A stretch of DNA of 64,000 nucleotides from Candidatus Shapirobacteria bacterium (GTDB taxonomy: Bacteria > Patescibacteriota > Microgenomatia > UBA12405), in assembly GCA_016188545.1 (NCBI GenBank), contig JACPHO010000002.1, forward strand, positions 13 to 64,012. The letters run 5' to 3'. Within the stretch, counting starts at the first letter, position 1; every line of letters begins with the position of its first letter. The position numbers and the translations under genes were made by a program. Below, piece by piece: positions 5,827 to 61,012 of the stretch. The notes under the pieces were generated by a model. That model did not search any database. It was not told where the DNA came from and saw only the letters and a program-made list of their open reading frames with translations.

Positions 5827-7284
5827 ATGGTAGAATGGGACATGATTTTGGGTAGGGGCGTAATTTATCGATACAGTAAAGAACCGATCTTTAATGGAGC
5901 GGAATTTTTTGTGGGTAAGGGAGAAAAAGTGGGGTTGGTGGGACAGAACGGCTCGGGTAAATCTACACTATTTAAACTGATAATGGGTGAAGAATACCCA
6001 GATGAGGGGTCGGTCAAGGTTGATGGTACAGTACTGGGGGTACCTCAGGAAGTAAAACACGACGAGCAGATGGAGAAAGCAGCATCGGTTCGGGATTATA
6101 TTGATCCAAAACACCAAAAAGAAGATTATGAACTACGAAGACTACTGGCAAAACTAGAGTTGGGAGAATATGATCTGTCGGATAAACCGGTTAAAATGAG
6201 CGGTGGTCAGAAGACTAAGCTGGCCATAGTGCGGGCGTTAGTCGCCTCCCCTGATGTATTACTTTTGGATGAGCCGACCAACTTTTTGGATACTGCCGGA
6301 AAGCAGTGGGTAATGGATTTTTTGGGTAAATACCCAAAGACACTTCTAATTATTTCCCACGACTTAAATCTTCTGGATAAATCGATTGACAAAATACTGG
6401 AGGTAAATGGTCAGTCAAAAAAACTGGATGAATATAAAGGAAACTATACTGATTACGTCAAGTTGAAAGGTGAAAAAGATGCACTCTTGGTTCGACAAAT
6501 TCATGTCCAGGAACGACATATTGTGCGAATGAAAAAGGGATGGTTAAAAATGTCGCATGTTAAGTCAGAAAAAGGTGTCCGCCAGAAACTACAGTTGGAA
6601 AAGCGTATCGTGGCGATGGAAGAAAGCCTGCCAACCATGCCATCTGAAGCTAAGAAATTCAAAATTAAATTACCAGAACCTTCATGGGTGGGATCAATCC
6701 CCCTGATGATGAGTGGGATTAACAAAGCCTATGGGACTAAAAAAGTACTGACTGGAGTTGATTTTGATATCAAACGGGGTGAGCGAATTGCCCTGGTCGG
6801 GCAAAACGGAGCCGGAAAAAGTACCTTGATCAAAATTATTATGGGGATGCAGGAGGCTGATTCGGGAGAGGTTTATAAAGATGAGAAACTGGTGATCGGA
6901 TACTATTCTCAGGAGTTTGAAACTTTTGATTTTGATAAAACACTTTTGGAGACTATAAAAGATGTGTGTTCGATGCCGGAACAGACCCTACGGGGACATT
7001 TGGGAAGGTTTTTGTTTGGGGCGGATAAAGTCAACCAAAAGGTGAAAACTTTGTCCGGTGGAGAAAAGACAAGACTGGCGATAGCCTTACTTCTGGGACA
7101 GAATTTTAACCTACTGGTACTGGACGAGCCAACAACGTACCTTGATGTACTTTCCCAACGATTAATTCTGGAAGCTTTGAAGGGTTACAGCGGGGCAATG
7201 ATATTGGTGTCACACACACCAGAATTTATTACGGAACTAAAGCCTAATCGCAAATTTTACCTACCGGAAAACCGCTGGGAATAA
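5827..7284 (+). CDS. ABC-F family ATPase (two ABC domains, no TMD)
   Basis: Two Walker A motifs (GQNGSGKST and GQNGAGKST) and two signature motifs (LSGGQKTKLA and LSGGEKTRLA). Start moved to the internal Met to avoid overlapping pyk. Confidence 0.85.
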   Translation: MVEWDMILGRGVIYRYSKEPIFNGAEFFVGKGEKVGLVGQNGSGKSTLFKLIMGEEYPDEGSVKVDGTVLGVPQEVKHDEQMEKAASVRDYIDPKHQKEDYELRRLLAKLELGEYDLSDKPVKMSGGQKTKLAIVRALVASPDVLLLDEPTNFLDTAGKQWVMDFLGKYPKTLLIISHDLNLLDKSIDKILEVNGQSKKLDEYKGNYTDYVKLKGEKDALLVRQIHVQERHIVRMKKGWLKMSHVKSEKGVRQKLQLEKRIVAMEESLPTMPSEAKKFKIKLPEPSWVGSIPLMMSGINKAYGTKKVLTGVDFDIKRGERIALVGQNGAGKSTLIKIIMGMQEADSGEVYKDEKLVIGYYSQEFETFDFDKTLLETIKDVCSMPEQTLRGHLGRFLFGADKVNQKVKTLSGGEKTRLAIALLLGQNFNLLVLDEPTTYLDVLSQRLILEALKGYSGAMILVSHTPEFITELKPNRKFYLPENRWE

Positions 7285-10602: not shown

Positions 10603-10663
10603 TAATCTAAAGCTTCGTAACGTAGGTAAGTTTGATAAAATAGGAAGAATTTAATGGAGAGTT

Positions 10664-10730
10664 CCTCCTTCGCTTTGCTACGGCGGATAAACCCACCTTC
10701 GCGAAGACAACGCTTCGGCGGGTAAATCGG
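10664..10730. repeat. tandem pair of CC(N)CC...CGGCGG hairpin repeats (family also at 47005, 56886 and 60836)
   Basis: cctccttcgctttgctacggcgg followed by cccaccttcgcgaagacaacgcttcggcgggtaaatcgg. The gcgggtaaatcgg tail is identical to that at 47023-47037. Confidence 0.6.
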
Positions 10731-10786
10731 ACCAGCCTTCACTCCTTAGGAGTTACGGCTTGGCACAGTAGTAGTTTTAACAATAT

Positions 10787-42705: not shown

Positions 42706-44640
42706 ATGAATATTAGAAGGATATTGTTGTCGACTCTTGCAATAGTAAGTTTTTTATACATCGGGACGAAGGATTTGTGGGCGGCTAACAGCAAATCTTT
42801 TAAAATTACCTCGGCAAATATTGAGGCCATACTAGATATTGACGGATCCATGGAAGTAAGAGAATCAAGGCAATATAGCTTCAACGGGAGCTACACATTT
42901 GCTTATCAATATATAAATAAACGAGGTGGGAAGGGAATAGAAAACAGGAGAAGCGAAGACTATGAGTTAGATAACTTTTCACTATGCGAGGCAACAACTT
43001 GTTATCGCGGACTCCAGCAGGAGGAAATTAGAGCGGCAGATGATAACCGACCTGAAGGAACGTTTTATGTAATCGAAGAGGCTGATAGATACTATGTTAA
43101 GTGGTTTTACCGGAGTAATAGTGGGGTAAAGAATTTTGAGCTGAGATATCGGGTCGCCAACGCAATTACTCAACAAAAAGATACTGCAGAACTGTATTGG
43201 AAATTGATTGGAGATGGGTGGGAAGTAGCGACGAGTAATATGAATGCGAAAATAAAACTACCTCTAGCGGTCGATGGAAATAAGATTAAGGCTTGGGCAC
43301 ACGGACCAATAGGTGGAGTGGTGTCGATTCCGACAAACAGCCTAGTAACAGCAGCGGTGAATAGATTGCCTACAAAAACATTTTTTGAGATCCGAGTGTT
43401 GATGCCCAAAGAGACTTTTTATAAAGGAGTTAAAGGGACGATAACCACAGGTGAGATAGAGGCACAAGAAAAAAAATACATTGAGGACACAATTGCTGAT
43501 CAGAAAAGGAAAGAGATGGGAGCGCAAGCAGCGGTAGCTGGAGTGGTACTACTGACACTGTGGGCGGTGGTTAGGTTTGTAAGAAGGTTAGGACAATTTT
43601 TGAAAAATGGTTTGGAACTAAAAATGCCTAGAGTGAATCTGGCGGACAGAATTTGGGAACCGCCAAGCAATATTGACCCGGCACAAGTAGAACAGCTACT
43701 AAAAGCGGAAAAGACACTTACTCCGAAATCATTTACGGCGACGATTTTGTCACTAGTGCAACACAGAGTTTACAGGCTAACCAGAAGTGATCAAAAAATA
43801 GGTTTTTTGATATTTAAGAAATATGAATATTATCTGGAAAAACAGGTAAATGAGAAGTATGTACCATCAGGAATTGAACAAAAAACAATTGAATACCTTG
43901 ATAAAGTAGGGACGGGGAAAATTGGACTTTCTGACGTTGTTAAATACGCCAGAACCAGAAGAACAACCAGTTACAACTTCTTTAAATCCTTTGAAAAAAC
44001 GGCGCTAAGAGAGAATCTCGAAGAAGGTTATTTTGACAAGAAAGCTCATTTTTTGGTCAACAATTATGGTGGTGAGGTCGGCAACGGACTGACTTTGTTT
44101 CTAGTATTCATGGCGATACCGTTTACATCTCCGCTGCTAACAAATTCACCATGGTTTTTGATAGCTGAAATAGCATGTGTACCAATAATGGTGGTGATAA
44201 TGGCAATAAGGGGCTACATGAAGAAGTATGGTGAGAAGAGAACTGAGAAAGGGAGTGAAGAGGCAGCAAAATGGATGGCCTTTGAAAAACATATGAGTGA
44301 CTATCGGCAGACCCAAAAGTACCCGATTGATTCGATTGTCCTCTGGGAAAAATATTTGGTATATGGAACAGTGCTGGGAGTATCGATGAAAACGTTGTCA
44401 CAACTACCAGTAAAATTTAGCGCTGAAGACGCCATTTTGGGAACTACTTATTGGGGAGGGGGGCACTTTTCAGGAACCGATGGAGTTTTTGGAGGTGATT
44501 TTGGTTCTTTTTCACAAGCAATGAACTCAATTGCTTCGACTGCGAGTGCCAGTTATGGGGCCAGTGGAACAGGTTCGTCAGGTGGTGCATCGGGTGGAGG
44601 TGGCGGTGGAGGCGGAGGTGGCGGTGGAGGAGCAGGCTAA
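42706..44640 (+). CDS. DUF2207 family membrane protein with a poly-Gly C-terminus
   Basis: Signal peptide, a large extracytoplasmic domain, TM helices, and a C-terminal GGGGGGGGGGGAG tail typical of DUF2207. Confidence 0.6.
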   Translation: MNIRRILLSTLAIVSFLYIGTKDLWAANSKSFKITSANIEAILDIDGSMEVRESRQYSFNGSYTFAYQYINKRGGKGIENRRSEDYELDNFSLCEATTCYRGLQQEEIRAADDNRPEGTFYVIEEADRYYVKWFYRSNSGVKNFELRYRVANAITQQKDTAELYWKLIGDGWEVATSNMNAKIKLPLAVDGNKIKAWAHGPIGGVVSIPTNSLVTAAVNRLPTKTFFEIRVLMPKETFYKGVKGTITTGEIEAQEKKYIEDTIADQKRKEMGAQAAVAGVVLLTLWAVVRFVRRLGQFLKNGLELKMPRVNLADRIWEPPSNIDPAQVEQLLKAEKTLTPKSFTATILSLVQHRVYRLTRSDQKIGFLIFKKYEYYLEKQVNEKYVPSGIEQKTIEYLDKVGTGKIGLSDVVKYARTRRTTSYNFFKSFEKTALRENLEEGYFDKKAHFLVNNYGGEVGNGLTLFLVFMAIPFTSPLLTNSPWFLIAEIACVPIMVVIMAIRGYMKKYGEKRTEKGSEEAAKWMAFEKHMSDYRQTQKYPIDSIVLWEKYLVYGTVLGVSMKTLSQLPVKFSAEDAILGTTYWGGGHFSGTDGVFGGDFGSFSQAMNSIASTASASYGASGTGSSGGASGGGGGGGGGGGGGAG

Positions 44641-44645
44641 AAAAT

Positions 44646-45005
44646 ATGATTAACCTACTTGATATACACCAGAAAAAGATGGAGGTATTCGAGAAAACGG
44701 GTATAGGAAATTGGTGTGATTGGCTGGAAAAGAGAACATGGATACGGCCAAACCATATTACAGTAGTGAACTTGATGGTGGGGTGGGCGGCAACTATGAG
44801 TTTGTTTAATGACGTCGGTCAGACATCAGGACTAATTATACTAATGATGATGCTGGACGGGTTTGATGGATACTACGCGGTGAGAAATAACTTGAAAACA
44901 AAGATGGGTGAGGTATTGGATCATGGGGGGGGATATATGGCGATAGGAGTGGCAATGTTGTTGAAAAGCTATTGGCACTACGGTGAGTGGTGGATAGAAT
45001 ACTGA
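44646..45005 (+). CDS. small membrane protein, CDP-alcohol phosphatidyltransferase-like fragment (uncertain)
   Basis: DGFDGYYAVR...GEVLD partially fits the D-G-x2-A-R...G-x3-D motif. The ORF is only 119 aa. Confidence 0.3.
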   Translation: MINLLDIHQKKMEVFEKTGIGNWCDWLEKRTWIRPNHITVVNLMVGWAATMSLFNDVGQTSGLIILMMMLDGFDGYYAVRNNLKTKMGEVLDHGGGYMAIGVAMLLKSYWHYGEWWIEY

Positions 45006-45186
45006 TACTTAAAAATGGGTGGCAAGAAATTAAATTCCCGGAACGGGATTTTATCTATTTGTACATTTTTGGCTGGTATTGGGAGGGGTTAATAGTCCAA
45101 TTGATATTACAGCCGATGATTTTGGGGTACTTTTTATATAATCGGATGCGTGGTGCTAGAATTAGTAATTAGTTATTTGAAATAAA

Positions 45187-45735
45187 ATGAACAAAAAGTA
45201 TTTGATACTAGCGGCTACCCTACTAATACTGGGCGGATGTACTAAGCAGGGAGTGGTTTCTAATGTGGTTGATAAAGTTGAACAAAAAAAAGAAGAGGCT
45301 AAGAAATCAATTAAGGACCTAGTGGCGTCCGGAGTAAGTCAAAAGTGTTCTTGGAAGTCGGATGTTGATGGTACAACATCAGAAGGACAAATGTGGATAT
45401 CTGGCAAGAAGTTTAAACAAGAAATAACCACAGAATTGGCAGAAACAAATGTTGAAACTAAAGCTACAGTAGTATCCGATGGTAGCTACACATATATGTG
45501 GAACAGCGAAATGGGTAAGAAGGGAATTAAGATGGCCATAAAGGATGATGAAACTCAGGACTATAGTGCTGAAAACGGGAAGGTTGATTGGAACAAAGAG
45601 TTCCAATTTGAATGTAACCCGAGTACAGTCAGCGACAGTGAGTTGGCACCTCCCACCGATGTTGATTTCCAAGACCTGGGGGTGCAACTGGAACAACTCC
45701 AGCAACTACAGGAGAAATACGGGCAAGGCGAGTAA
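45187..45735 (+). CDS. lipoprotein, hypothetical
   Basis: Lipobox LILGGC at the N-terminus. Confidence 0.45.
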   Translation: MNKKYLILAATLLILGGCTKQGVVSNVVDKVEQKKEEAKKSIKDLVASGVSQKCSWKSDVDGTTSEGQMWISGKKFKQEITTELAETNVETKATVVSDGSYTYMWNSEMGKKGIKMAIKDDETQDYSAENGKVDWNKEFQFECNPSTVSDSELAPPTDVDFQDLGVQLEQLQQLQEKYGQGE

Positions 45736-45741
45736 TAAATA

Positions 45742-46320
45742 ATGGACGTTACTAACAGACAGGAAAAGTTGGATAGAGTTATCGGGCAAAGGCGTGAGGG
45801 GGTGATGGTGTTGCAAGATATTCATGACCCACATAATGCGGCTGCTGTGTGGAGGAGCATTGACGCTTTTGGGTGGCAAAAAGTATATTTGATTTTTGAA
45901 CAAGAAGAAGTGTTTAATCCTAAAAAAATGGGACGAGAGTCGTCGGCTTCGGCTAATAAATGGTTGGATTTTAAGGTGTTTAAGTCGACCAGAGAATGCA
46001 TAGAGGAATTACATCGTGAAGGATATGGCCTATGGGCGACAGTGCTTGATAGGGAGGCTAGTGAAATTTATGAGTCAAAATTTGAGGATAAAAAAATTGC
46101 GATAATGTTGGGAAATGAGCATCGGGGGTTAACAGAAGAAGCGGTGAAACTAGCTGATAGGAAGGTGTACATACCAATGAGAGGAATGGTTCAGAGCCTT
46201 AATTTATCGGTAAGTGCAGCGATATGCTTATATGAAGTTGAGAGACAAAGAGAAGAAAGTGACGGGGAGTTTGGACTAAGCGATGTGGAAAAAATAGATC
46301 TGGAAAAAAGGTGGAGATAA
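45742..46320 (+). CDS. SpoU/TrmH-family RNA 2'-O-methyltransferase
   Basis: VLQDIHDPHNAAAVWRSIDAFG..., LGNEHRGL, and SLNLSVSAAICLYE are the SPOUT motifs. Confidence 0.75.
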   Translation: MDVTNRQEKLDRVIGQRREGVMVLQDIHDPHNAAAVWRSIDAFGWQKVYLIFEQEEVFNPKKMGRESSASANKWLDFKVFKSTRECIEELHREGYGLWATVLDREASEIYESKFEDKKIAIMLGNEHRGLTEEAVKLADRKVYIPMRGMVQSLNLSVSAAICLYEVERQREESDGEFGLSDVEKIDLEKRWR

Positions 46321-46321
46321 T

Positions 46322-46948
46322 TCACTTGGCTTTTGAGATGGGGGAGAAGGAAAACCGATGAATGGGACATGGTCCATATTTTTTGATCGCTTCAAGGTGG
46401 GTTTTGGTGCCATAGCCTTTGTGGGCAGAAAAACCATAGTCTGGAAAATCTTTGTCGCACTGATCCATTTGTTGATCCCGGTCGACTTTGGCGACAATAG
46501 AGGCACTGGCAATGCTAAAACATTTTTGGTCACCTTTAATTATTGATTGCGTGTTAATAAGTTTATTAACATTATAGTTGCCATCAATAAGGCAATAATC
46601 AAAATTAGTACGATAGAACTTTAGAGCTTTGGTAATTAAAGAATAGATACAAATAGCTATCCCCTGTTTGTCTATTTCGACTGAGGTAGAAGAAAAAGTT
46701 GTAAATCGGTGACCTGAATTAAGAAAATGTTCGTGGATTTTTTGGCGTTTTTGAGCAGAAAGTAATTTGGAATCACGAACCCCAAGATTGATGAATTCCT
46801 GAGGATCAAATGTATGAAGATCAAGCAGAAAGGCACCGATGGTTACCGATCCAGCAAAAGGTCCCCTACCAACCTCATCGATACCTAGCAGATAGCGACA
46901 GTCAGATGGAAGTTGTGATTTTTCAAACTTAAAATCAGGAAGATTCAC
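46322..46948 (-). CDS. rnhB: ribonuclease HII
   Basis: LLGIDEVGRGPFAGSVTIGA and downstream RNase HII catalytic motifs. Confidence 0.85.
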   Translation of the reverse strand: MNLPDFKFEKSQLPSDCRYLLGIDEVGRGPFAGSVTIGAFLLDLHTFDPQEFINLGVRDSKLLSAQKRQKIHEHFLNSGHRFTTFSSTSVEIDKQGIAICIYSLITKALKFYRTNFDYCLIDGNYNVNKLINTQSIIKGDQKCFSIASASIVAKVDRDQQMDQCDKDFPDYGFSAHKGYGTKTHLEAIKKYGPCPIHRFSFSPISKAK

Positions 46949-47004
46949 GAGTAGAATTAATTAGTTATTAATTCAAATTATATATGGCGGTTACTAAGAC
47001 TGGA

Positions 47005-47037
47005 GCCCGCCGTCGCCATGCTACGGCGGGTAAATCG
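47005..47037. repeat. CCCGCC...GGCGGG hairpin repeat with a gtaaatcgg tail
   Basis: cccgccgtcgccatgctacggcgggtaaatcgg. Related to the elements at 10664-10730, 56886-56927 and 60836-60896. Confidence 0.6.
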
Positions 47038-47089
47038 GTGGTGGAACACTAGTTTGCTGTGGAAAAGAGATGGTACTTAAGGCAGAATA

Positions 47090-47138
47090 GTTGTTTCGCC
47101 CGAAGGCTCATCAGGTCCGATAGATTTCGGACTACAAC
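47090..47138 (-). ncRNA. hammerhead ribozyme, type III (stems I and II closed, stem III open)
   Basis: Minus strand reads GUUGUA|GUCCGA-aaucua-UCGGAC-CUGAUGA-GCC-uucg-GGC-GAAA-CAAC. All core nucleotides are present (CUGAUGA, GAAA, U16.1-A15.1, H17=A). Stem I is 6 bp, stem II 3 bp with a UUCG loop, stem III 5 bp. Confidence 0.65.
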
Positions 47139-47336
47139 ATCTTCTAGGCTCGCGAATGGGGTCAGGCTGCTGCCTGACCCCAGAAGTTTCGCGATACCCA
47201 GAAGGGAATTCAAGGTATATATAAAGCCATACATTTATAACAACTCCGAGTCGGTTTTTTATGTCCACAAGCACTGAGGCTGGACTAGATGGGAGTCGGG
47301 AATGTTCCCCTATGGCGTTGTGGGGAATAGGATAAA

Positions 47337-48098
47337 TTACTTGGCTTCGGAAGTGCCCATGTACTTGGCAACCAAGTCAGAAGCGGAAGGTGTTTCGACT
47401 TCTGTGCCCAAAGCGCGGAGCTTGGCATCTGCACGACGGCGAGCGATCTTGAGATTCGCTTCATCTTCGTAAGTCTTTGCTTCGGCTTCTGCGTTCTGAA
47501 GAATCTCTTCAGCCTTCTGCTGATTGCGCTGACTGCCAGCTTCATCGAGATCGGCGATGATACGGTAGATTTCCTTGCCGGAAGAAGCACTGGCAGCGCG
47601 AGAACGGGCTTCTGCGAGCTTGGACTTGCGGACCTTGATCTCAGTGTCGAGGGCGTCAATGTCAATATCGAGTTTCTTGACACGAGCGTCGGCAGCCTCA
47701 TAACGAGTCCGAATTTCAGCCGAGTCTTCCTGAGCAGTCTGCATCTTTTCAACAGCTTCCTTCACGGATGCTTCGTCACCCAACTTACCGGCACGTTTTG
47801 CGGCGCGGTCCATGGTGGAGATTTCGTCATCGAAGGGTTTCAACTGTTCAAGAGCGAGATTGCGGGCGGTTTTCAGCTCAAGCAGATGGGTTTCCGATCT
47901 GGACTTGGCGAGTTCTGCCGCTGCAACTGCTGCTTCTTGACGGGCGACAGCGGAGTCGAGCTTGCGGATGACGACACTGCGCATGTGAAAAAGACGGACG
48001 CGAATGACATCAGCGAGGGCATCCGGGCTGGCAAAAAGCCAAATGACGAACAGGGCAGCGAGAATGATCTGGACGGTGGGATTCATTAGGTATTGCAT
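47337..48098 (-). CDS. membrane-anchored coiled-coil protein, PspA/IM30-like (or ATP-synthase-b-like); first gene-end of the GC-rich operon
   Basis: N-terminal hydrophobic helix, then ~220 aa of heptad-rich Ala/Glu/Arg/Lys sequence. GC content is clearly higher than the surrounding sequence. Confidence 0.45.
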   Translation of the reverse strand: MQYLMNPTVQIILAALFVIWLFASPDALADVIRVRLFHMRSVVIRKLDSAVARQEAAVAAAELAKSRSETHLLELKTARNLALEQLKPFDDEISTMDRAAKRAGKLGDEASVKEAVEKMQTAQEDSAEIRTRYEAADARVKKLDIDIDALDTEIKVRKSKLAEARSRAASASSGKEIYRIIADLDEAGSQRNQQKAEEILQNAEAEAKTYEDEANLKIARRRADAKLRALGTEVETPSASDLVAKYMGTSEAK

Positions 48099-48170
48099 TT
48101 TTTCATCTCCAAAAGTTAGTTTATTTGACGATATGACATTACGACACAGAGAACTGTTTTGTTGACCTCC

Positions 48171-48788
48171 TTATGATCCGACTCTGAGAATGATGGCAAC
48201 CGCGACGAACTTGACGACGGCAACCAAGATGGCATGCGAGTCATTGTCCTTTTCAACCATCCATTCATTGAACTTGTCGAGACTGCGGATGCCTGAAAGA
48301 TAGGCAATGATGAAGGTGATGATGTCACCAATCATCTCGCCGACGGCGCCGCGAGTCAGGACAGCAAAGATGAACATGTCGGGGGTTGAGGCATCTAACA
48401 CCGTAGCAACTTGCCAGCCGGAAAGCAAAATCCCCGCGAGAATGATCACGTGGGAATTGTTGCGTGCGGCATCGAGCTGACCACGAAGTGTAATGGCACC
48501 CCTTCGGTTCCAGGGCCAGCGAAGCAGCGGGGTATCCATGACATGTTCGAAAGAGATGAAAGTCATGATCAACACATAAGCGACGAAGACCCCACCGCGA
48601 ACCTTGAGACCAATGAGAAATCCTTTGGTCAGGAACGCGAAGAGATCATTGATGGACTGTCCGCTGGGAGCGAAAAAGTACAAACCAGCAGCGAATGCAA
48701 GCGAAAGCAACACAAACTTGAGAAGTAGGTATGCCTTGCCGGAAATTCCGTTTTGTTCCATGGTTTCTCCAAACTTATGCCATAGCAC
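48171..48788 (-). CDS. polytopic membrane protein, hypothetical (GC-rich island)
   Basis: 205 aa with four or more hydrophobic segments. Confidence 0.4.
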   Translation of the reverse strand: MLWHKFGETMEQNGISGKAYLLLKFVLLSLAFAAGLYFFAPSGQSINDLFAFLTKGFLIGLKVRGGVFVAYVLIMTFISFEHVMDTPLLRWPWNRRGAITLRGQLDAARNNSHVIILAGILLSGWQVATVLDASTPDMFIFAVLTRGAVGEMIGDIITFIIAYLSGIRSLDKFNEWMVEKDNDSHAILVAVVKFVAVAIILRVGS

Positions 48789-49554
48789 GGGTCATTTCGC
48801 CAATGAATGGGTCAATCGACTCGCCTAGATAGACTCCTTCGGTCCAGAGATAATCTGTGCCGCTGAAGTGGTTGGTGAATAAGACAGTATTCCCTTGTGG
48901 ATCTTCACCCAAAAGGTACTTGACTTTCATGGCATCTGGGGAGGGTAATGTGCCACCGCGAGTCTCGACTTCAAAGTAGCCGACGTCGACCACAGTGATA
49001 TCAATTCCCAGAGTTTTGAAAGTATAGCTTCGTGCTTCCTGATCGTATGGCGGATGGCTGAATACCTCACCGGCTTTGTTGAAATCTTCGCCTCCTTGCG
49101 GGGAAACGGAGACACGCTTCTTTAGCGTAAAGCCGTAGTAGCCTTCCGGTCGGTGAATGATCATGGTGCCGTTATCAAAAACACGGACAGACCACTCTTC
49201 ACCACGACGGGAATAAATTTGGGTATTGGGGCGGCGATTGAGCCCGTGGAAAATTCCAAACGCGGAGAGAGTCACTTCGATCTTTCGACCTGACTCGCGA
49301 AGCGCAAGTTCCACCATTTCGCCAACACGCAAATCTTCAAAACGATCATTTGCCGGAGCTTCTGCGGGCACACGCTGGTCTTTTAGATCATCACGAAGAT
49401 TTTCCAGTTCTTGTGTTGATTTTGTAGCCGAGCGTATGAATGTCTGCAGGGTATCACGGAAGTTCCGTATTCGTGCAGGATTGGTCAGCAGGAATCCAAT
49501 TCCAATGATGATCAACCCGACGACTCCAGAACCAATACAAAGATTTCCTGACAT
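48775..49554 (-). CDS. membrane-anchored hypothetical protein (GC-rich island)
   Basis: N-terminal TM helix, a short coiled coil, then a ~180 aa globular domain. Confidence 0.4.
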   Translation of the reverse strand: MSGNLCIGSGVVGLIIIGIGFLLTNPARIRNFRDTLQTFIRSATKSTQELENLRDDLKDQRVPAEAPANDRFEDLRVGEMVELALRESGRKIEVTLSAFGIFHGLNRRPNTQIYSRRGEEWSVRVFDNGTMIIHRPEGYYGFTLKKRVSVSPQGGEDFNKAGEVFSHPPYDQEARSYTFKTLGIDITVVDVGYFEVETRGGTLPSPDAMKVKYLLGEDPQGNTVLFTNHFSGTDYLWTEGVYLGESIDPFIGEMTRAMA

Positions 49555-49566
49555 ATTGTTCCTCTC

Positions 49567-50760
49567 TTAGAATCCATCACCAGAATCTTGTGAATCACTT
49601 CCTCCAAAACCATCACCAGAATCTTGTGAATCGTATCCACCGAAGCCATCGTCCGAACTACCGCAACAATCACTTCCACTGTCAGACGAACCGCTATCAC
49701 CTCCATACGACGGTGATCCAGTCGAACTGGTGTCATCATCAGGAGGATCATATGGAACGGCTGTGGGTGGAGGCTCTTGGGCGTCGTCGTAACTCTGGTT
49801 GGCGTAGCTAGTGCAATTTGAAACATGCGTACTGACGCTCGAGAAATCCTGAGCGTAGCAAGCATTGAGCGCAAGCTGTTTTTCGGTCACAGCACTGTCG
49901 TAGTTACTTTGCGCTCCGTACGAATCATAGGCACCTATTAATTCTCCACCTGCTCGGGTTATGGACGCTTGACAGCTAGCAATCTCTAGAGGAGCATTGT
50001 CAGCTTCAGATGATAGATTGTCCGCTGTTGAAGACGCGTTTTGGGCGGTAATACTTGCCTGTTGCGCTTGATCATAAACGAGCGGCTTATCCACAACTCC
50101 TTCAGGGAGGGTGGTTCGGAATGTTACTTTGGCGACATTGTCGAGTTGACTTTGCGCTTGGGTTAGATACGTCATTGCGGAGGCATAAGACAAGGTTCCT
50201 TGACCGCAGAGGCTTTTTGTTGGCATTGCTGCAACGTAGAGAGTCTCTGTATCGATCACTTTCTGAACCTCGCCAATGTACCCACGATCCACAGCCTCAG
50301 ATTTTGCTTGAAGTTGTGAATAATATGACGGTGGACCCAAAATCTGGACTATGATCTGTTCGGCATTTCTTAACTTGATGTCGGCTTCTTCCCAATAGTA
50401 GCGGGCAGAGTCACGATCATCACTATCAAGAGAGCTTTGGGCTTGGGCTTGCAACGCCTGAACAGAACCTTGAAGATTTGACCTCGCTGTGGACAGCTGA
50501 GTATCAAAACCTTCACTCCAATGCCTGGCGTACTTTGGCGACTGCTCGATAAATTCCTTTTCAGCGCTGGGTAGCTGAACGTCTAGTGAGACTCTGCGGG
50601 TTTCGAGTTCGGCGATTTTTGCCGTTAGATCCCGAAGCTCTGCAGCGTCAAAGGCGTTCATAATTAAACCTGACGCGATTAAGAACAAACAGAACAGAGC
50701 GCTGTACAACCAGACACGGTCGTCAACTAGAGGTTGACTTCGTGCTAAGTTGTTTCGCAT
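49567..50760 (-). CDS. membrane-anchored coiled-coil protein with an acidic Ser/Asp/Gly-rich repetitive C-terminus (GC-rich island)
   Basis: N-terminal TM helix. Coiled coil. C-terminal (DSQDSGDGFGG)x2, encoded by a ~36 bp tandem DNA repeat at 49571-49640. Confidence 0.4.
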   Translation of the reverse strand: MRNNLARSQPLVDDRVWLYSALFCLFLIASGLIMNAFDAAELRDLTAKIAELETRRVSLDVQLPSAEKEFIEQSPKYARHWSEGFDTQLSTARSNLQGSVQALQAQAQSSLDSDDRDSARYYWEEADIKLRNAEQIIVQILGPPSYYSQLQAKSEAVDRGYIGEVQKVIDTETLYVAAMPTKSLCGQGTLSYASAMTYLTQAQSQLDNVAKVTFRTTLPEGVVDKPLVYDQAQQASITAQNASSTADNLSSEADNAPLEIASCQASITRAGGELIGAYDSYGAQSNYDSAVTEKQLALNACYAQDFSSVSTHVSNCTSYANQSYDDAQEPPPTAVPYDPPDDDTSSTGSPSYGGDSGSSDSGSDCCGSSDDGFGGYDSQDSGDGFGGSDSQDSGDGF

Positions 50761-50860
50761 ACCTTTCCTTCCTTTCAGATTTATTTTCTTACTTACGATT
50801 TATCGGTAGCACCTCCTGATGCATGGTTTGGTTTTTTTATTTCAACTACTACAAATATTG

Positions 50861-50985
50861 CTGTAGTGCGCTCAAAGCCGAAAATGGTTTCGACACTGGG
50901 TGCACTACAGCGATGTAGACTATATATATACACTTGAATTGTTAAGGTACTGTAAATATGCAAAAAACACACGCGATTGTGTGTT
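50861..50985. promoter_or_regulatory. divergent control region with two inverted repeats (candidate operators)
   Basis: ctgtagtgc-N32-gcactacag at 50861-50910 and aacacac-gcgatt-gtgtgtt at 50966-50985. The region lies between the minus-strand GC-rich operon and the plus-strand pepF-like gene. Confidence 0.4.
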
Positions 50986-51082
50986 TATTGAATTATTTAC
51001 GTTGGCGGATTATAGGATAAGCTACGTTAAAAGTCAACATTATGGGGTATGTTTTATGCTCAAAGATAAGTTACAATAAGAC

Positions 51083-52852
51083 ATGGCTAAAAATGGAGCA
51101 GAAAACTGGAACTTAAGCGAACTTGGAAAAGTGGCCGATTATGACAAATTACTGGCAGAAATAGATTCAAATATTGAAAAAGTAGAAAAATGGTGGAAGA
51201 AACTAAACCCTAAAATGAGCAAGGAGGAGTTTGCTGAATTCATGGAATACGACGAACTTCTCGACGATAAATTCTCCAGACTGATGTACCTACCGGAACT
51301 GATGGAATCGACTAACCAAAAGGATAGTCAGGCTCGTCTCATGAAGAGCAAGGCAAGTGACTTGGCTTTGAAATTTAATAAAACTAGCCGAAAGATAGGG
51401 CATTGGCTGAAGGGACTTGAGGTAGAAAACAAAGAAAAACTGGACGATGAAAACGCTAGAAGATTATTTTCGGCCATACCTGATTTGGAATATGGACTTA
51501 ACTACGGCAGATTGGCGGCGAAATATACCCTCCCCCAGAATGAAGAAGAAATCATCGATAATAAAGATGTAAATGGAATGGGGGCGGTGAGTGACCTTCG
51601 AGGACTGATTGAAGCTGATTTGGTCTACGATATGGACGGAAAAAAGATAAAAAACCAGGCTGATTTGTTGAAATATGTCCATGATGCTAATCCAAAAAAG
51701 CGCGAATCTGCATACAGAGCTTTATTCAAGGAACATCTTAAAAACATTGACAAGTTTTTTGTAATCTATCAGTCAGTAGTCAAAGATTGGGGATACGAAG
51801 CAAAGCTAAGAGGTTATAACTCGGCTATTGAAGTTAGAAACTTTGGTAATCATGTGCCAAACGAAGCCATTGAAACCCTACTACGAGTATGTAAAGAAGA
51901 GAGAAAGGTATTTTGGAGGTATTTTGAAACTAAGGCAAAACTTCTAAAAAAGAAGAAACTTAGCCGGTTTGATGTGTACGCGCCAATAGGTCTAAAATCA
52001 GGCAAAAAAATAAAATATACGGAAGCAAAGGAACTGGTACTAAAAAGTTTTGCGACCTTTTCAAAAAAATTTGCCGATATGGCTGCTAAGGTAATAAATG
52101 AAAACCATATTGATTCTCATCCCAAAACAAACAAACGTAGCGGTGCATTTTGCGCCACAGTCAACCCAAAACTAACCCCTTATGTACTTCTAAATTACAC
52201 TGATAGCCAGAGAGATGTGTCAACACTGGCTCACGAGTTGGGACATGCAGTTCATAGCTTGTATGCTAATCATCACTATTCTTCATCACAGCACGCAAAT
52301 TTACCATTGTCCGAAACAGCTTCGACTTTTGGCGAGCTAGTACTTTTTGAATATATGTTGGCGGGCGAGAAGGATAAGGGTGTCAAAAAACAAATGTTAT
52401 CCGAGAAAATTGGGGATTCATACGCAACAATTCTCCGGCAAAACTATTTTGTAATGTTTGAGCTAAAGGCTCATGAAATGATCAGTAAAGGCACGACCGC
52501 TGAAGAATTGTGCAAGACATATTGGGAAAATCTTAAAGAACAATTTGGACCTTCAGTAAAACTAGATAAGGTCTTCCGATATGAGTGGCTTTATATTAGT
52601 CACATATTTGAATCACCGTTCTATTGTTATGCTTACAACTTTGGTGAACTACTTTCATTGTCTTTGTACGCCAGATATAAAAAGGAAGGTGGGAAGTTTG
52701 CTAGCAAAATTGAAAATGTATTAGCAGATGGTGGATCAAGAGCTCCAGAAAAAGTGCTGGCTGATGTAGGGGTGGATATGAGTGATGAGAATTTTTGGAG
52801 AGGTGGGTTCGAATTGATTCGGGGTTGGCAAAACCAGCTTGAAGGGTTATAA
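51083..52852 (+). CDS. pepF: oligoendopeptidase F (M3B family)
   Basis: HELGHAVH zinc motif and length and architecture typical of PepF. Confidence 0.8.
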   Translation: MAKNGAENWNLSELGKVADYDKLLAEIDSNIEKVEKWWKKLNPKMSKEEFAEFMEYDELLDDKFSRLMYLPELMESTNQKDSQARLMKSKASDLALKFNKTSRKIGHWLKGLEVENKEKLDDENARRLFSAIPDLEYGLNYGRLAAKYTLPQNEEEIIDNKDVNGMGAVSDLRGLIEADLVYDMDGKKIKNQADLLKYVHDANPKKRESAYRALFKEHLKNIDKFFVIYQSVVKDWGYEAKLRGYNSAIEVRNFGNHVPNEAIETLLRVCKEERKVFWRYFETKAKLLKKKKLSRFDVYAPIGLKSGKKIKYTEAKELVLKSFATFSKKFADMAAKVINENHIDSHPKTNKRSGAFCATVNPKLTPYVLLNYTDSQRDVSTLAHELGHAVHSLYANHHYSSSQHANLPLSETASTFGELVLFEYMLAGEKDKGVKKQMLSEKIGDSYATILRQNYFVMFELKAHEMISKGTTAEELCKTYWENLKEQFGPSVKLDKVFRYEWLYISHIFESPFYCYAYNFGELLSLSLYARYKKEGGKFASKIENVLADGGSRAPEKVLADVGVDMSDENFWRGGFELIRGWQNQLEGL

Positions 52853-60777: not shown

Positions 60778-60789
60778 TTTTTAAGTTAA

Positions 60790-60818
60790 ACCCGCCGATG
60801 TGGCGGGTTTTTTTTGTT
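60790..60818 (+). terminator. rho-independent terminator
   Basis: cccgccgatgtggcggg followed by T8. Confidence 0.8.
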
Positions 60819-60835: not shown

Positions 60836-60896
60836 CCACCTACGCTTTATAAAAAGACATAAGTGGACCGATCCGCCTACGCTATTGCTACGGCGG
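60836..60896. repeat. tandem hairpin repeat units (ccacctacgct...gtgg and ccgcctacgctattgctacggcgg)
   Basis: Same family as 10664, 47005 and 56886. Confidence 0.55.
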
Positions 60897-60910
60897 ACAT
60901 AGGAGAATAT

Positions 60911-61012
60911 CTATTCATCACCGCAATTGCAGTGACAGTTGCCACCACAGCAACCACCTTCAGTGGATTCTGGAGTTGTAGTGACTTTTTGATCGGTCTT
61001 TTTGTTGGTCAT
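60911..61012 (-). CDS. tiny Cys-rich ORF (33 aa), metallothionein-like or double-Gly-leader-like
   Basis: MTNKKTDQKVTTTPESTEGG|CCGGNCHCNCGDE. Below the ORF-track threshold. Its 3' end abuts the hairpin repeat. Confidence 0.3.
   Translation of the reverse strand: MTNKKTDQKVTTTPESTEGGCCGGNCHCNCGDE

Follow-up and report, generated by a model that had tools for sequence, protein, structure and literature searches.

A hairpin and a predicted hammerhead ribozyme in the trailer of a horizontally acquired PspA-like operon, next to a gene remnant, in a Candidatus Shapirobacteria genome

The 64-kb stretch of DNA analysed here (64,000 nucleotides, called the window), from a Candidatus Shapirobacteria bacterium, holds 388 nt without a credible open reading frame (ORF) at 46949-47336, between the start of rnhB, which encodes RNase HII (46322-46948, minus strand, start at 46948), and the end of a gene for a 253-aa PspA/IM30-like protein (47337-48098, minus strand, stop at 47337). 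Coordinates are window positions, and an arrow (->) between them marks a minus-strand reading. This interval is a composite with all of its parts best read on the minus strand, namely the trailer of an operon, an insertion junction, and a gene remnant followed by the rnhB upstream region, and the reading as a single non-coding RNA (ncRNA) fails. The best overall explanation, which we hold with somewhat more confidence than doubt, is that the trailer of a horizontally acquired operon, with a hairpin and a self-cleaving hammerhead ribozyme, has been joined to the wreck of a small native gene, ruined by the insertion. The closest database proteins also place the window in Candidatus Shapirobacteria, a lineage of the Patescibacteria. 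An identical 12.6-kb stretch is present on a Logan contig, and the contig occurs in SRR12113422. The interval folds far more stably than shuffled sequences (minus strand z = -6.0, plus strand z = -5.2), which bears out the original prediction, made from the sequence alone, that it is gene-free and structured. The accompanying statement that nothing this long is gene-free elsewhere in the window does not hold, as a 322-nt gap lies at the other end of the inserted island (50761-51082) and a crude ORF map with a cut-off of 80 aa leaves several more gaps, 450-765 nt long, some of which hold tRNAs.

From the PspA-like stop codon towards rnhB, the trailer contains four elements.

47327->47305, minus strand: hairpin 1, UUCCCC-N11-GGGGAA, from the minimum free energy (MFE) fold, 10 nt after the PspA-like stop codon.
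47223->47207, minus strand: 3' arm of an inverted repeat, TATATATACCTTGAATT, with its partner in the operon leader at 50940->50921.
47204->47141, minus strand: long composite hairpin of 64 nt and 29 bp, dG = -45.8 kcal/mol, z = -8.3.
47140->47088, minus strand: type III hammerhead, Rfam RF00008, 24.8 bits, E = 0.0076.

The hammerhead lies inside the interval, as had been claimed, and its core, CUGAUGA...GAAA with the A-U closing pair (A15.1-U16.1), is intact and identical in the homologues. The cleavage triplet is GUA, which fits the NUH rule and is followed by a G of stem I, and the cut is predicted after the A of GUA, between 47133 and 47132. Its stems I, II and III count 6, 3 and 5 bp; loops cap stem I and stem II (UUCG in the latter), and stem III is open. 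Homologues are found in L004, L006 and L016 (L numbers denote loci other than the window) and in five loci from a pattern search. In an alignment of seven hammerheads, some columns of which were fixed by the search pattern, 91.9% of the cells are paired, compared with 29-44% when the pairing is slid, and eight pairs show double changes. A covariance-model search finds no second hammerhead in the window, where the ribozyme is thus present in single copy. A retrozyme-like or circular-RNA origin was rejected, the window having one hammerhead and a DNA unit that is not permuted at the cleavage site. Beyond the hammerhead, a permissive Rfam scan of 46800-47500 gives no meaningful match (one miRNA-family match on the GC hairpin is meaningless), the gathering threshold leaves only four tRNAs in the whole window, and megablast of 44000-52000 against a phage collection gives no match.

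The long hairpin ends 4 nt before stem III of the hammerhead. The perfect 10-bp GC hairpin of the original prediction is real, but it lies at 47158-47181 instead of 47166-47189 (8 nt off) and forms only the tip of the 29-bp composite structure. No U-tract follows it on either strand, in agreement with that prediction; the sequences 3' of the hairpins are AUUCGCG, CAUUCCC and CUCCAGU, and a terminator scan of 46000-48500 finds no intrinsic terminator on either strand. Terminators with a U-tract are used elsewhere in the genome, for example at 60788-60815. A reading of the long hairpin as an integron attC site was set aside, with no RYYYAAC/GTTRRRY core sites and no integrase nearby. At about 47305, the hairpin GGGAA-CA-UUCCC that had been described there is sterically impossible because its loop would be 2 nt, and the conserved structure at that place is hairpin 1, which is kept in L006, in L009 (UUUCCC/GGGAAA, a compensatory change from C-G to U-A) and in L016 (UCCCC-N9-GGGGA).

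Relatives keep these elements in one order, which is hairpin 1, the TATATAC-CTTGA motif of the repeat arm, the long hairpin and the hammerhead, with compensatory changes in the stems. L006, whose PspA-like protein is 80% identical, keeps all four (hammerhead 35.6 bits in Rfam). L009, with 55% identity, has hairpin 1 with its compensatory change, the motif, and the long hairpin with its tip altered to GGGUGGGGC/GCCCCACCC and its pairing kept. L016 holds a complete island on a 567-kb contig, and its first island gene is 49% identical to that of the window, a figure that refers to this gene, the L016 PspA-like protein being outside the comparison; its trailer has the same element order with a divergent hammerhead (36 bits with our own covariance model, E = 2e-9), followed by a canonical terminator. 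The motif lies downstream of the PspA-like genes in all three loci, and the long hairpin is also conserved in L004. Relatives thus conserve hairpin 1 and the hammerhead as well as the long hairpin. A larger processed ncRNA is possible. The conserved part, 47088-47336, is the 3' trailer of a four-gene operon and probably not a free-standing RNA gene; it always follows the PspA-like gene, or the replacement of that gene in L004, and neither a promoter scan nor the alignments of the relatives reveal a conserved -35/-10 geometry for a promoter of its own.

Two of these loci are natural experiments on the ribozyme. In L004, the core of the island is swapped for an unrelated and also foreign gene of 478 aa, which is unrelated to any island protein, and the leader, the long hairpin and the hammerhead are kept, the hairpin starting 3 nt after the stop codon of the new gene. 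In L006, a pseudogene remnant of about 100 nt, which adjoins the hammerhead in the window, is deleted exactly to the hammerhead 3' end. As the hammerhead is kept through both the swap and the deletion, these events point to selection on the ribozyme. The divergence of L006 past the hammerhead was also considered as a second, independent element boundary and was rejected, the alignment showing the same locus with the pseudogene remnant deleted. It is quite unlikely that the hammerhead and hairpins are an inert relic of phage-derived DNA, the significance of their fold reflecting only GC-rich foreign sequence. Bacterial hammerheads do lie typically in prophage-like regions with an unproven role (PMC3088659) and the Rfam score here is sub-threshold, but the ordered elements persist in homologues with only 49-55% protein identity, a distance at which neutral DNA would be randomised, the stem changes are compensatory, the ribozyme outlived the cargo swap in L004 and the adjacent deletion in L006, and the adjoining pseudogene, by contrast, decays freely.

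The association of hairpin and ribozyme extends beyond this locus, and a stable hairpin beside stem III, just past a stop codon, is the rule among 40 bacterial and phage type III hammerheads. A first pattern, built from the hammerhead sequence only, gave the five further loci mentioned above, from CPR (candidate phyla radiation) and Dehalococcoidia genomes and from metagenomes; in all five, a same-strand ORF ends shortly upstream, and stem III is preceded, at a distance of 0-8 nt, by a very stable hairpin (dG = -24 to -44 kcal/mol). A covariance model from seven hammerheads, used for a wider search, added hammerheads that flank small genes in L010, L012 and L013. The specific pattern has no match in IMG/VR, and a looser one gave 120 loci there, 30 of which were confirmed as type III hammerheads by the covariance model and 29 analysed. 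Across the scored set (10 bacterial and 29 phage hammerheads), the mean folding energy is -21.8 kcal/mol for the 60 nt upstream and -8.8 for the downstream side (Wilcoxon p = 1.6e-8), and the upstream windows are also more stable than ordinary gene ends (-21.8 vs -16.3, p = 1e-4), a control that is biased against the claim. In 32 of the 39, the end of a same-strand ORF lies at most 100 nt upstream (median 41 nt), and the next ORF often starts 20-70 nt downstream. Gene-flanking bacterial hammerheads have been reported, with transcript or mRNA processing suggested and the function left open (PMC3088659, PMC6155905, PMC6765202), and in a limited literature search these three papers make no mention of a hairpin that abuts stem III.

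Type III hammerheads also occur in clusters where each one follows a hairpin and small genes are punctuated, as in L010 (10-71, 395-457 and 1343-1405), L012 (4027-4088 and 5091-5188) and L013 (1588-1650 and 2299-2361), and likewise in the IMG/VR loci L024, L068, L086, L092, L112, L123 and L130. The Shine-Dalgarno sequence of the next gene in L010 begins about 10 nt past the ribozyme. In the second hammerhead of L012, stem II carries an insertion of about 45 nt, and a canonical terminator lies after this ribozyme.

The part of the interval between the hammerhead and rnhB is native to the host.

47087/47088: left island junction, from blastn against L002, confirmed by a three-way alignment.
46984-47090, plus strand: remnant of a decayed 44-aa Desulfoferrodoxin_N-like zinc-ribbon gene, intact in L002 at 1173-1307.
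47006-47034: 29-nt GC-rich hairpin unit (CCCGCCGTCGCCATGCTACGGCGGG+TAAA) inside the small gene, absent from L002.
46949-46983, minus strand: native sequence upstream of rnhB, conserved in L002, L004 and L006, in which TATAAT (46982->46977) resembles a -10 box.

L002, in which RNase HII is 84% identical, is a relative with an empty site, where pepF, the 44-aa gene and rnhB are packed together with no island. In blastn, window positions 46348-47005 and 47031-47087 match L002, the second at L002 1242-1185, and the match resumes at 51072 (51072-51399 corresponding to L002 1166-839). As it ends at 47087 and resumes only there, 47088-51071 (3984 nt) is an insertion, with about 19 nt of native sequence replaced. 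The inserted island has 50% GC compared with 40% in the host, and its left junction, directly past the hammerhead 3' end, is no more than 3-4 nt from where stem III ends. The proposed att-like boundary of a GC-rich island is therefore half right: the junction is inside the interval, but att-like features were not found, as no direct repeats join the junctions at about 47088 and about 51071, the four island proteins contain no integrase or recombinase domain, and there is no tRNA target.

The intact 44-aa gene of L002 matches Pfam PF06397 with E = 1.8e-13. In the window, its N-terminus (MAVTKTGA) and its C-terminus (GGGTLVCCGKEMVLKAE, followed by a stop) lie in different frames, the middle is lost through a 46-nt deletion beside the 29-nt hairpin insertion, with a frame shift, and the last codons are replaced by the insert, which supplies the stop codon. 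By its DNA homology to the intact L002 gene and its disrupted frame, 46984-47090 is a pseudogene, and the gene decay that would have refuted the original prediction is confined to this stretch. Decay of one protein-coding gene over the whole interval is very improbable. ORFs of 61-72 aa do overlap the interval and the remnant is a true one, but none of the three ORFs matches a Pfam family, even at E <= 1, homologous trailers differ by indels of 1, 2 and 5 nt and by compensatory stem changes rather than codon-wise, and only the outer ~105 nt are gene-derived. Upstream of rnhB, the TATAAT-like box may act as part of a promoter, judging from its sequence.

The hairpin unit inside the remnant occurs in L004 as a 31-nt insertion at the same point of an otherwise complete copy of the small gene. 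Its CCCGCC/GGCGGG hairpin, reported at 47005-47029, is real and lies at 47006-47030, and the dispersed repeat family to which it had been assigned exists in modest form, with units of about 30 nt at 10660-10735, 47006-47034 and 60873-60900, but the hairpin at 60791 is a U-tract terminator. The consensus of the unit is CC[G/T]CC...GCTACGGCGG[G/A]TAAA[TCGG], and a further copy lies in L004 at 6160-6190. The unit behaves like a miniature insertion, because one copy sits inside the Desulfoferrodoxin_N-like gene. At 60911-61012, on the minus strand, a candidate 33-aa cysteine-rich ORF (MTNKKTDQKVTTTPESTEGGCCGGNCHCNCGDE), metallothionein-like, is followed by a repeat hairpin of this family (read by eye).

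The interval between pepF and rnhB is a variable hot spot in the lineage, empty in L002 and with the island in the window, L006 and L020. L004 carries an island scar with the foreign 478-aa gene, which is lipoprotein-like; in this locus rnhB is also immediately preceded by an additional gene of 199 aa and followed by a YafQ-like toxin pair. Window positions 42706-44640 encode a 644-aa membrane protein that ends, within a Ser/Gly-rich tail, in a run of about 13 glycines, and the gene is conserved at 644 aa in L002 and L004.

The island is a horizontally acquired PspA-like (membrane-stress) operon with an elaborate leader.

47337-50760, minus strand: four-gene operon, from ORFs, encoding membrane proteins of 397, 259 and 205 aa and the 253-aa PspA/IM30-like protein.
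50761-51071, minus strand: island leader, with a promoter, a terminator-like hairpin, the 5' repeat arm and a long leader hairpin.

Of the four minus-strand island genes, the PspA-like one comes last. Its protein matches PspA_IM30 weakly (E = 4e-4), whereas no Pfam match was obtained for the other three; the exact PspA-like protein with the chosen start codon is not on record, and its homologues form three other clusters, all on short contigs. The same four-gene order is found in L016 and L017. In the leader, a promoter scan finds the near-consensus TTGACT-17-TATAAT at 51037->51009 (11 of 12 matches), a terminator-like hairpin with a U-run follows at 50988->50960, only about 20 nt past the -10 box, and the long leader hairpin GCUGUAGUGC...GCACUACAGC lies at 50914->50857. 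All leader elements are conserved across six island homologues, and the terminator-like stem covaries (ACACAC/GUGUGU, GGCC/GGCC, GGGC/GCCC). Judged from this predicted structure, the leader looks like an attenuator or a regulatory leader, and it matches no Rfam family.

In L015-L020, the four-gene operon lies in differing neighbourhoods, with glutamate dehydrogenase, with an integrase and DivIC, with a toxin-antitoxin pair and an acetyltransferase, and with mraZ; its GC content equals that of the host in L015 and L016 and differs in the window and L020. These varied neighbourhoods and the matching or mismatching GC content suggest repeated transfer of the PspA-like operon within CPR bacteria.

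The inverted repeat connects the leader with the trailer, and TATATATACCTTGAATT has only these two sites in the window. Its core TTCAAG(A/T)G occurs at the corresponding end of every homologous island, and the leader and trailer arms are more alike within a genome than between genomes in the two genomes that have both arms. The cognate arm duplexes reach -26.3 and -27.1 kcal/mol (z = -5.3 and -4.6), and the cross duplexes -20.6 and -11.5. Since the arms are complementary in the mRNA, pairing of leader and trailer, or a regulatory RNA derived from the trailer, is possible, and a protein site or a recombination site is possible as well. A reading of the TATATAC-CTTGAA motif mainly as a promoter was rejected, as the -35 spacing is unconserved, the window copy has no invariant final T, and the scan is negative.

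One developed form of the pairing idea is that the trailer yields a discrete regulatory RNA, derived from the 3' untranslated region (UTR) or made from a TATA-rich promoter of its own, with a 3' end made by the hammerhead, and that its arm at 47207-47223 pairs with the leader at 50921-50940 for feedback or to bring the two mRNA ends together. The complementarity of both arms within one transcript agrees with it, as do their conservation in every homologue with that end on the contig, the better duplexes within a genome than between genomes, and the position of the 5' arm in an elaborate conserved leader beside an attenuator-like terminator. We nevertheless consider it unlikely, as the arm covariation comes from two islands, the sequence of the core TTCAAG(A/T)G is itself conserved, which would fit a protein site equally, other mRNA windows reach similar duplex energies with the trailer segment, and the -35/-10 geometry is unconserved (a 3-nt indel in L009, no -35 in L016), with a negative minus-strand promoter scan here.

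The breakpoints of the replacement in L004 coincide with the two arms, at AATT|CAAG...CTTG|AATT, which together with the insertion junction at the hammerhead 3' end, the different neighbourhoods of the island across genomes and its foreign composition here would suit a role in DNA, with the arms, the long hairpin or the hammerhead end as recombination sites or termini of a mobile unit and the RNA folds incidental. The chance of this is small. No integrase, transposase or recombinase lies in or next to the island within the window, the junctions have no direct repeats or target duplication, with ~19 native nt replaced instead, and the apparent second boundary in L006 is the same locus with a deletion. 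The conserved unit outreaches the arms, since it includes the promoter and attenuator on their upstream side and the hairpin and hammerhead on their downstream side, and therefore the arms are not termini of the kind expected of a transposon or a miniature inverted-repeat transposable element (MITE). The perfectly conserved hammerhead core and the covarying stems point instead to selection on RNA.

In the explanation that we prefer, the trailer acts through cleavage of the operon transcript. The island promoter is strong and no intrinsic terminator separates the last stop codon from rnhB, and therefore a read-through RNA with the long hairpin and the hammerhead is probable. Transcription from the island promoter would take in hairpin 1, then the repeat arm and the 29-bp hairpin, and lastly the hammerhead on its way towards rnhB, and the hammerhead would cut itself between 47133 and 47132. 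The operon mRNA would then end in the 29-bp hairpin, followed by 8 nt that carry a terminal 2',3'-cyclic phosphate, and this end would shield it from 3'-exonucleases. The downstream RNA, which carries rnhB, would have a 5'-OH and the folded ribozyme at its beginning. The cassette would in this way obtain a defined 3' end, and the host rnhB would be insulated from the foreign promoter. Such cleavage would explain four features: the hairpin directly adjoins stem III, the pair lies just past stop codons, it survives an exchange of cargo, and it marks where conservation ends.

Several points weigh against this explanation. Transcription through the trailer and cleavage in vivo are predictions, and the covariation of the hammerhead is drawn from an alignment with pattern-fixed columns. 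The RF00008 gathering threshold of 48.5 bits is reached neither by the window hammerhead (24.8 bits) nor by that of L006 (35.6 bits), a shortfall caused by the short stem II and its loop and not by core mismatches; given this score and a 3-bp stem II with a UUCG loop, fast cleavage at cellular Mg2+ would not be assured. A canonical terminator lies 10-40 nt after the hammerhead in L012 (the second one) and in L016, and the ribozyme is therefore not simply a substitute for a missing terminator; cases with both would be explained only if the ribozyme standardises the 3' end of terminated and read-through RNAs alike. Protection of the 3' end leaves the conserved repeat arm and hairpin 1 unexplained, and the downstream fragment with its 5'-OH may or may not be stable in these organisms.

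With the described type III hammerheads of bacteria and phages (PMC3088659, RF00008), the window hammerhead shares the core, the three stems with an open stem III, the intergenic position on the coding strand in horizontally acquired DNA, and the proposed role of cutting long transcripts to gene-length mRNAs. In related loci (L010, L012, L013 and many IMG/VR contigs), several hammerheads likewise punctuate small genes. This one is a single copy at the 3' end of an operon, and it also differs from the described hammerheads in its CPR (Shapirobacteria) host, in its cargo of a PspA-like membrane operon outside any obvious prophage, in its score below the Rfam gathering threshold, and in the strong hairpin that abuts its stem III.

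RiboJ-type insulators are engineered elements of a hammerhead and a hairpin in the 5' UTR, with the hairpin downstream of the ribozyme. The trailer resembles them in that a hammerhead and an adjacent hairpin would uncouple a transcription unit and leave a defined structured RNA end, but its hairpin is upstream and would stay on the 3' end of the preceding mRNA, and it is natural and not designed. Stabiliser hairpins and intrinsic terminators likewise place a GC-rich hairpin just past the coding region, where it would block 3'-exonucleases at the mRNA end; the trailer has no U-tract, and its 3' end would arise by self-cleavage and not by termination. Island boundaries of the attL/attR type share the sharp junction of 50% and 40% GC in a locus that varies among relatives, but this island has no flanking direct repeats, integrase or tRNA target, and native sequence was replaced and not duplicated. 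CpxQ, which derives from cpxP, is a regulatory RNA from the 3' UTR of an envelope-stress operon. The trailer is similarly a structured and conserved 3' UTR, here belonging to a membrane-stress operon, and part of it is complementary to a different mRNA region; it differs in that its proposed target is its own leader, its 3' end would be made by a ribozyme, and a separate RNA species is only proposed.

A wider and more speculative idea, for which we see a limited chance, is that a hairpin with a type III hammerhead forms a general, previously unremarked punctuation module for the mRNAs of phage and mobile bacterial operons, which would expose a protective 3' hairpin upstream and a structured 5'-OH end downstream, and that in the PspA-like family it is also coupled to a leader-trailer complementarity that closes the mRNA or regulates it by feedback.

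The role of the hundreds of hammerheads in bacteria and phages is still an open question (PMC6765202). A limited literature search found no paper on hammerheads in Patescibacteria, and the present locus documents one in a genome of this group, a known ribozyme class in a new host lineage. It is an unusually clean natural experiment, with a site that is empty, occupied, swapped in cargo with the hairpin and ribozyme kept, or changed by a neighbouring deletion that stops at the ribozyme. These four versions, together with the statistical coupling, turn the general notion of mRNA processing into a testable model of 3' ends made by a ribozyme and protected by a hairpin. The locus may also illustrate a way to keep a foreign operon and a housekeeping gene insulated from each other within a very compact genome.

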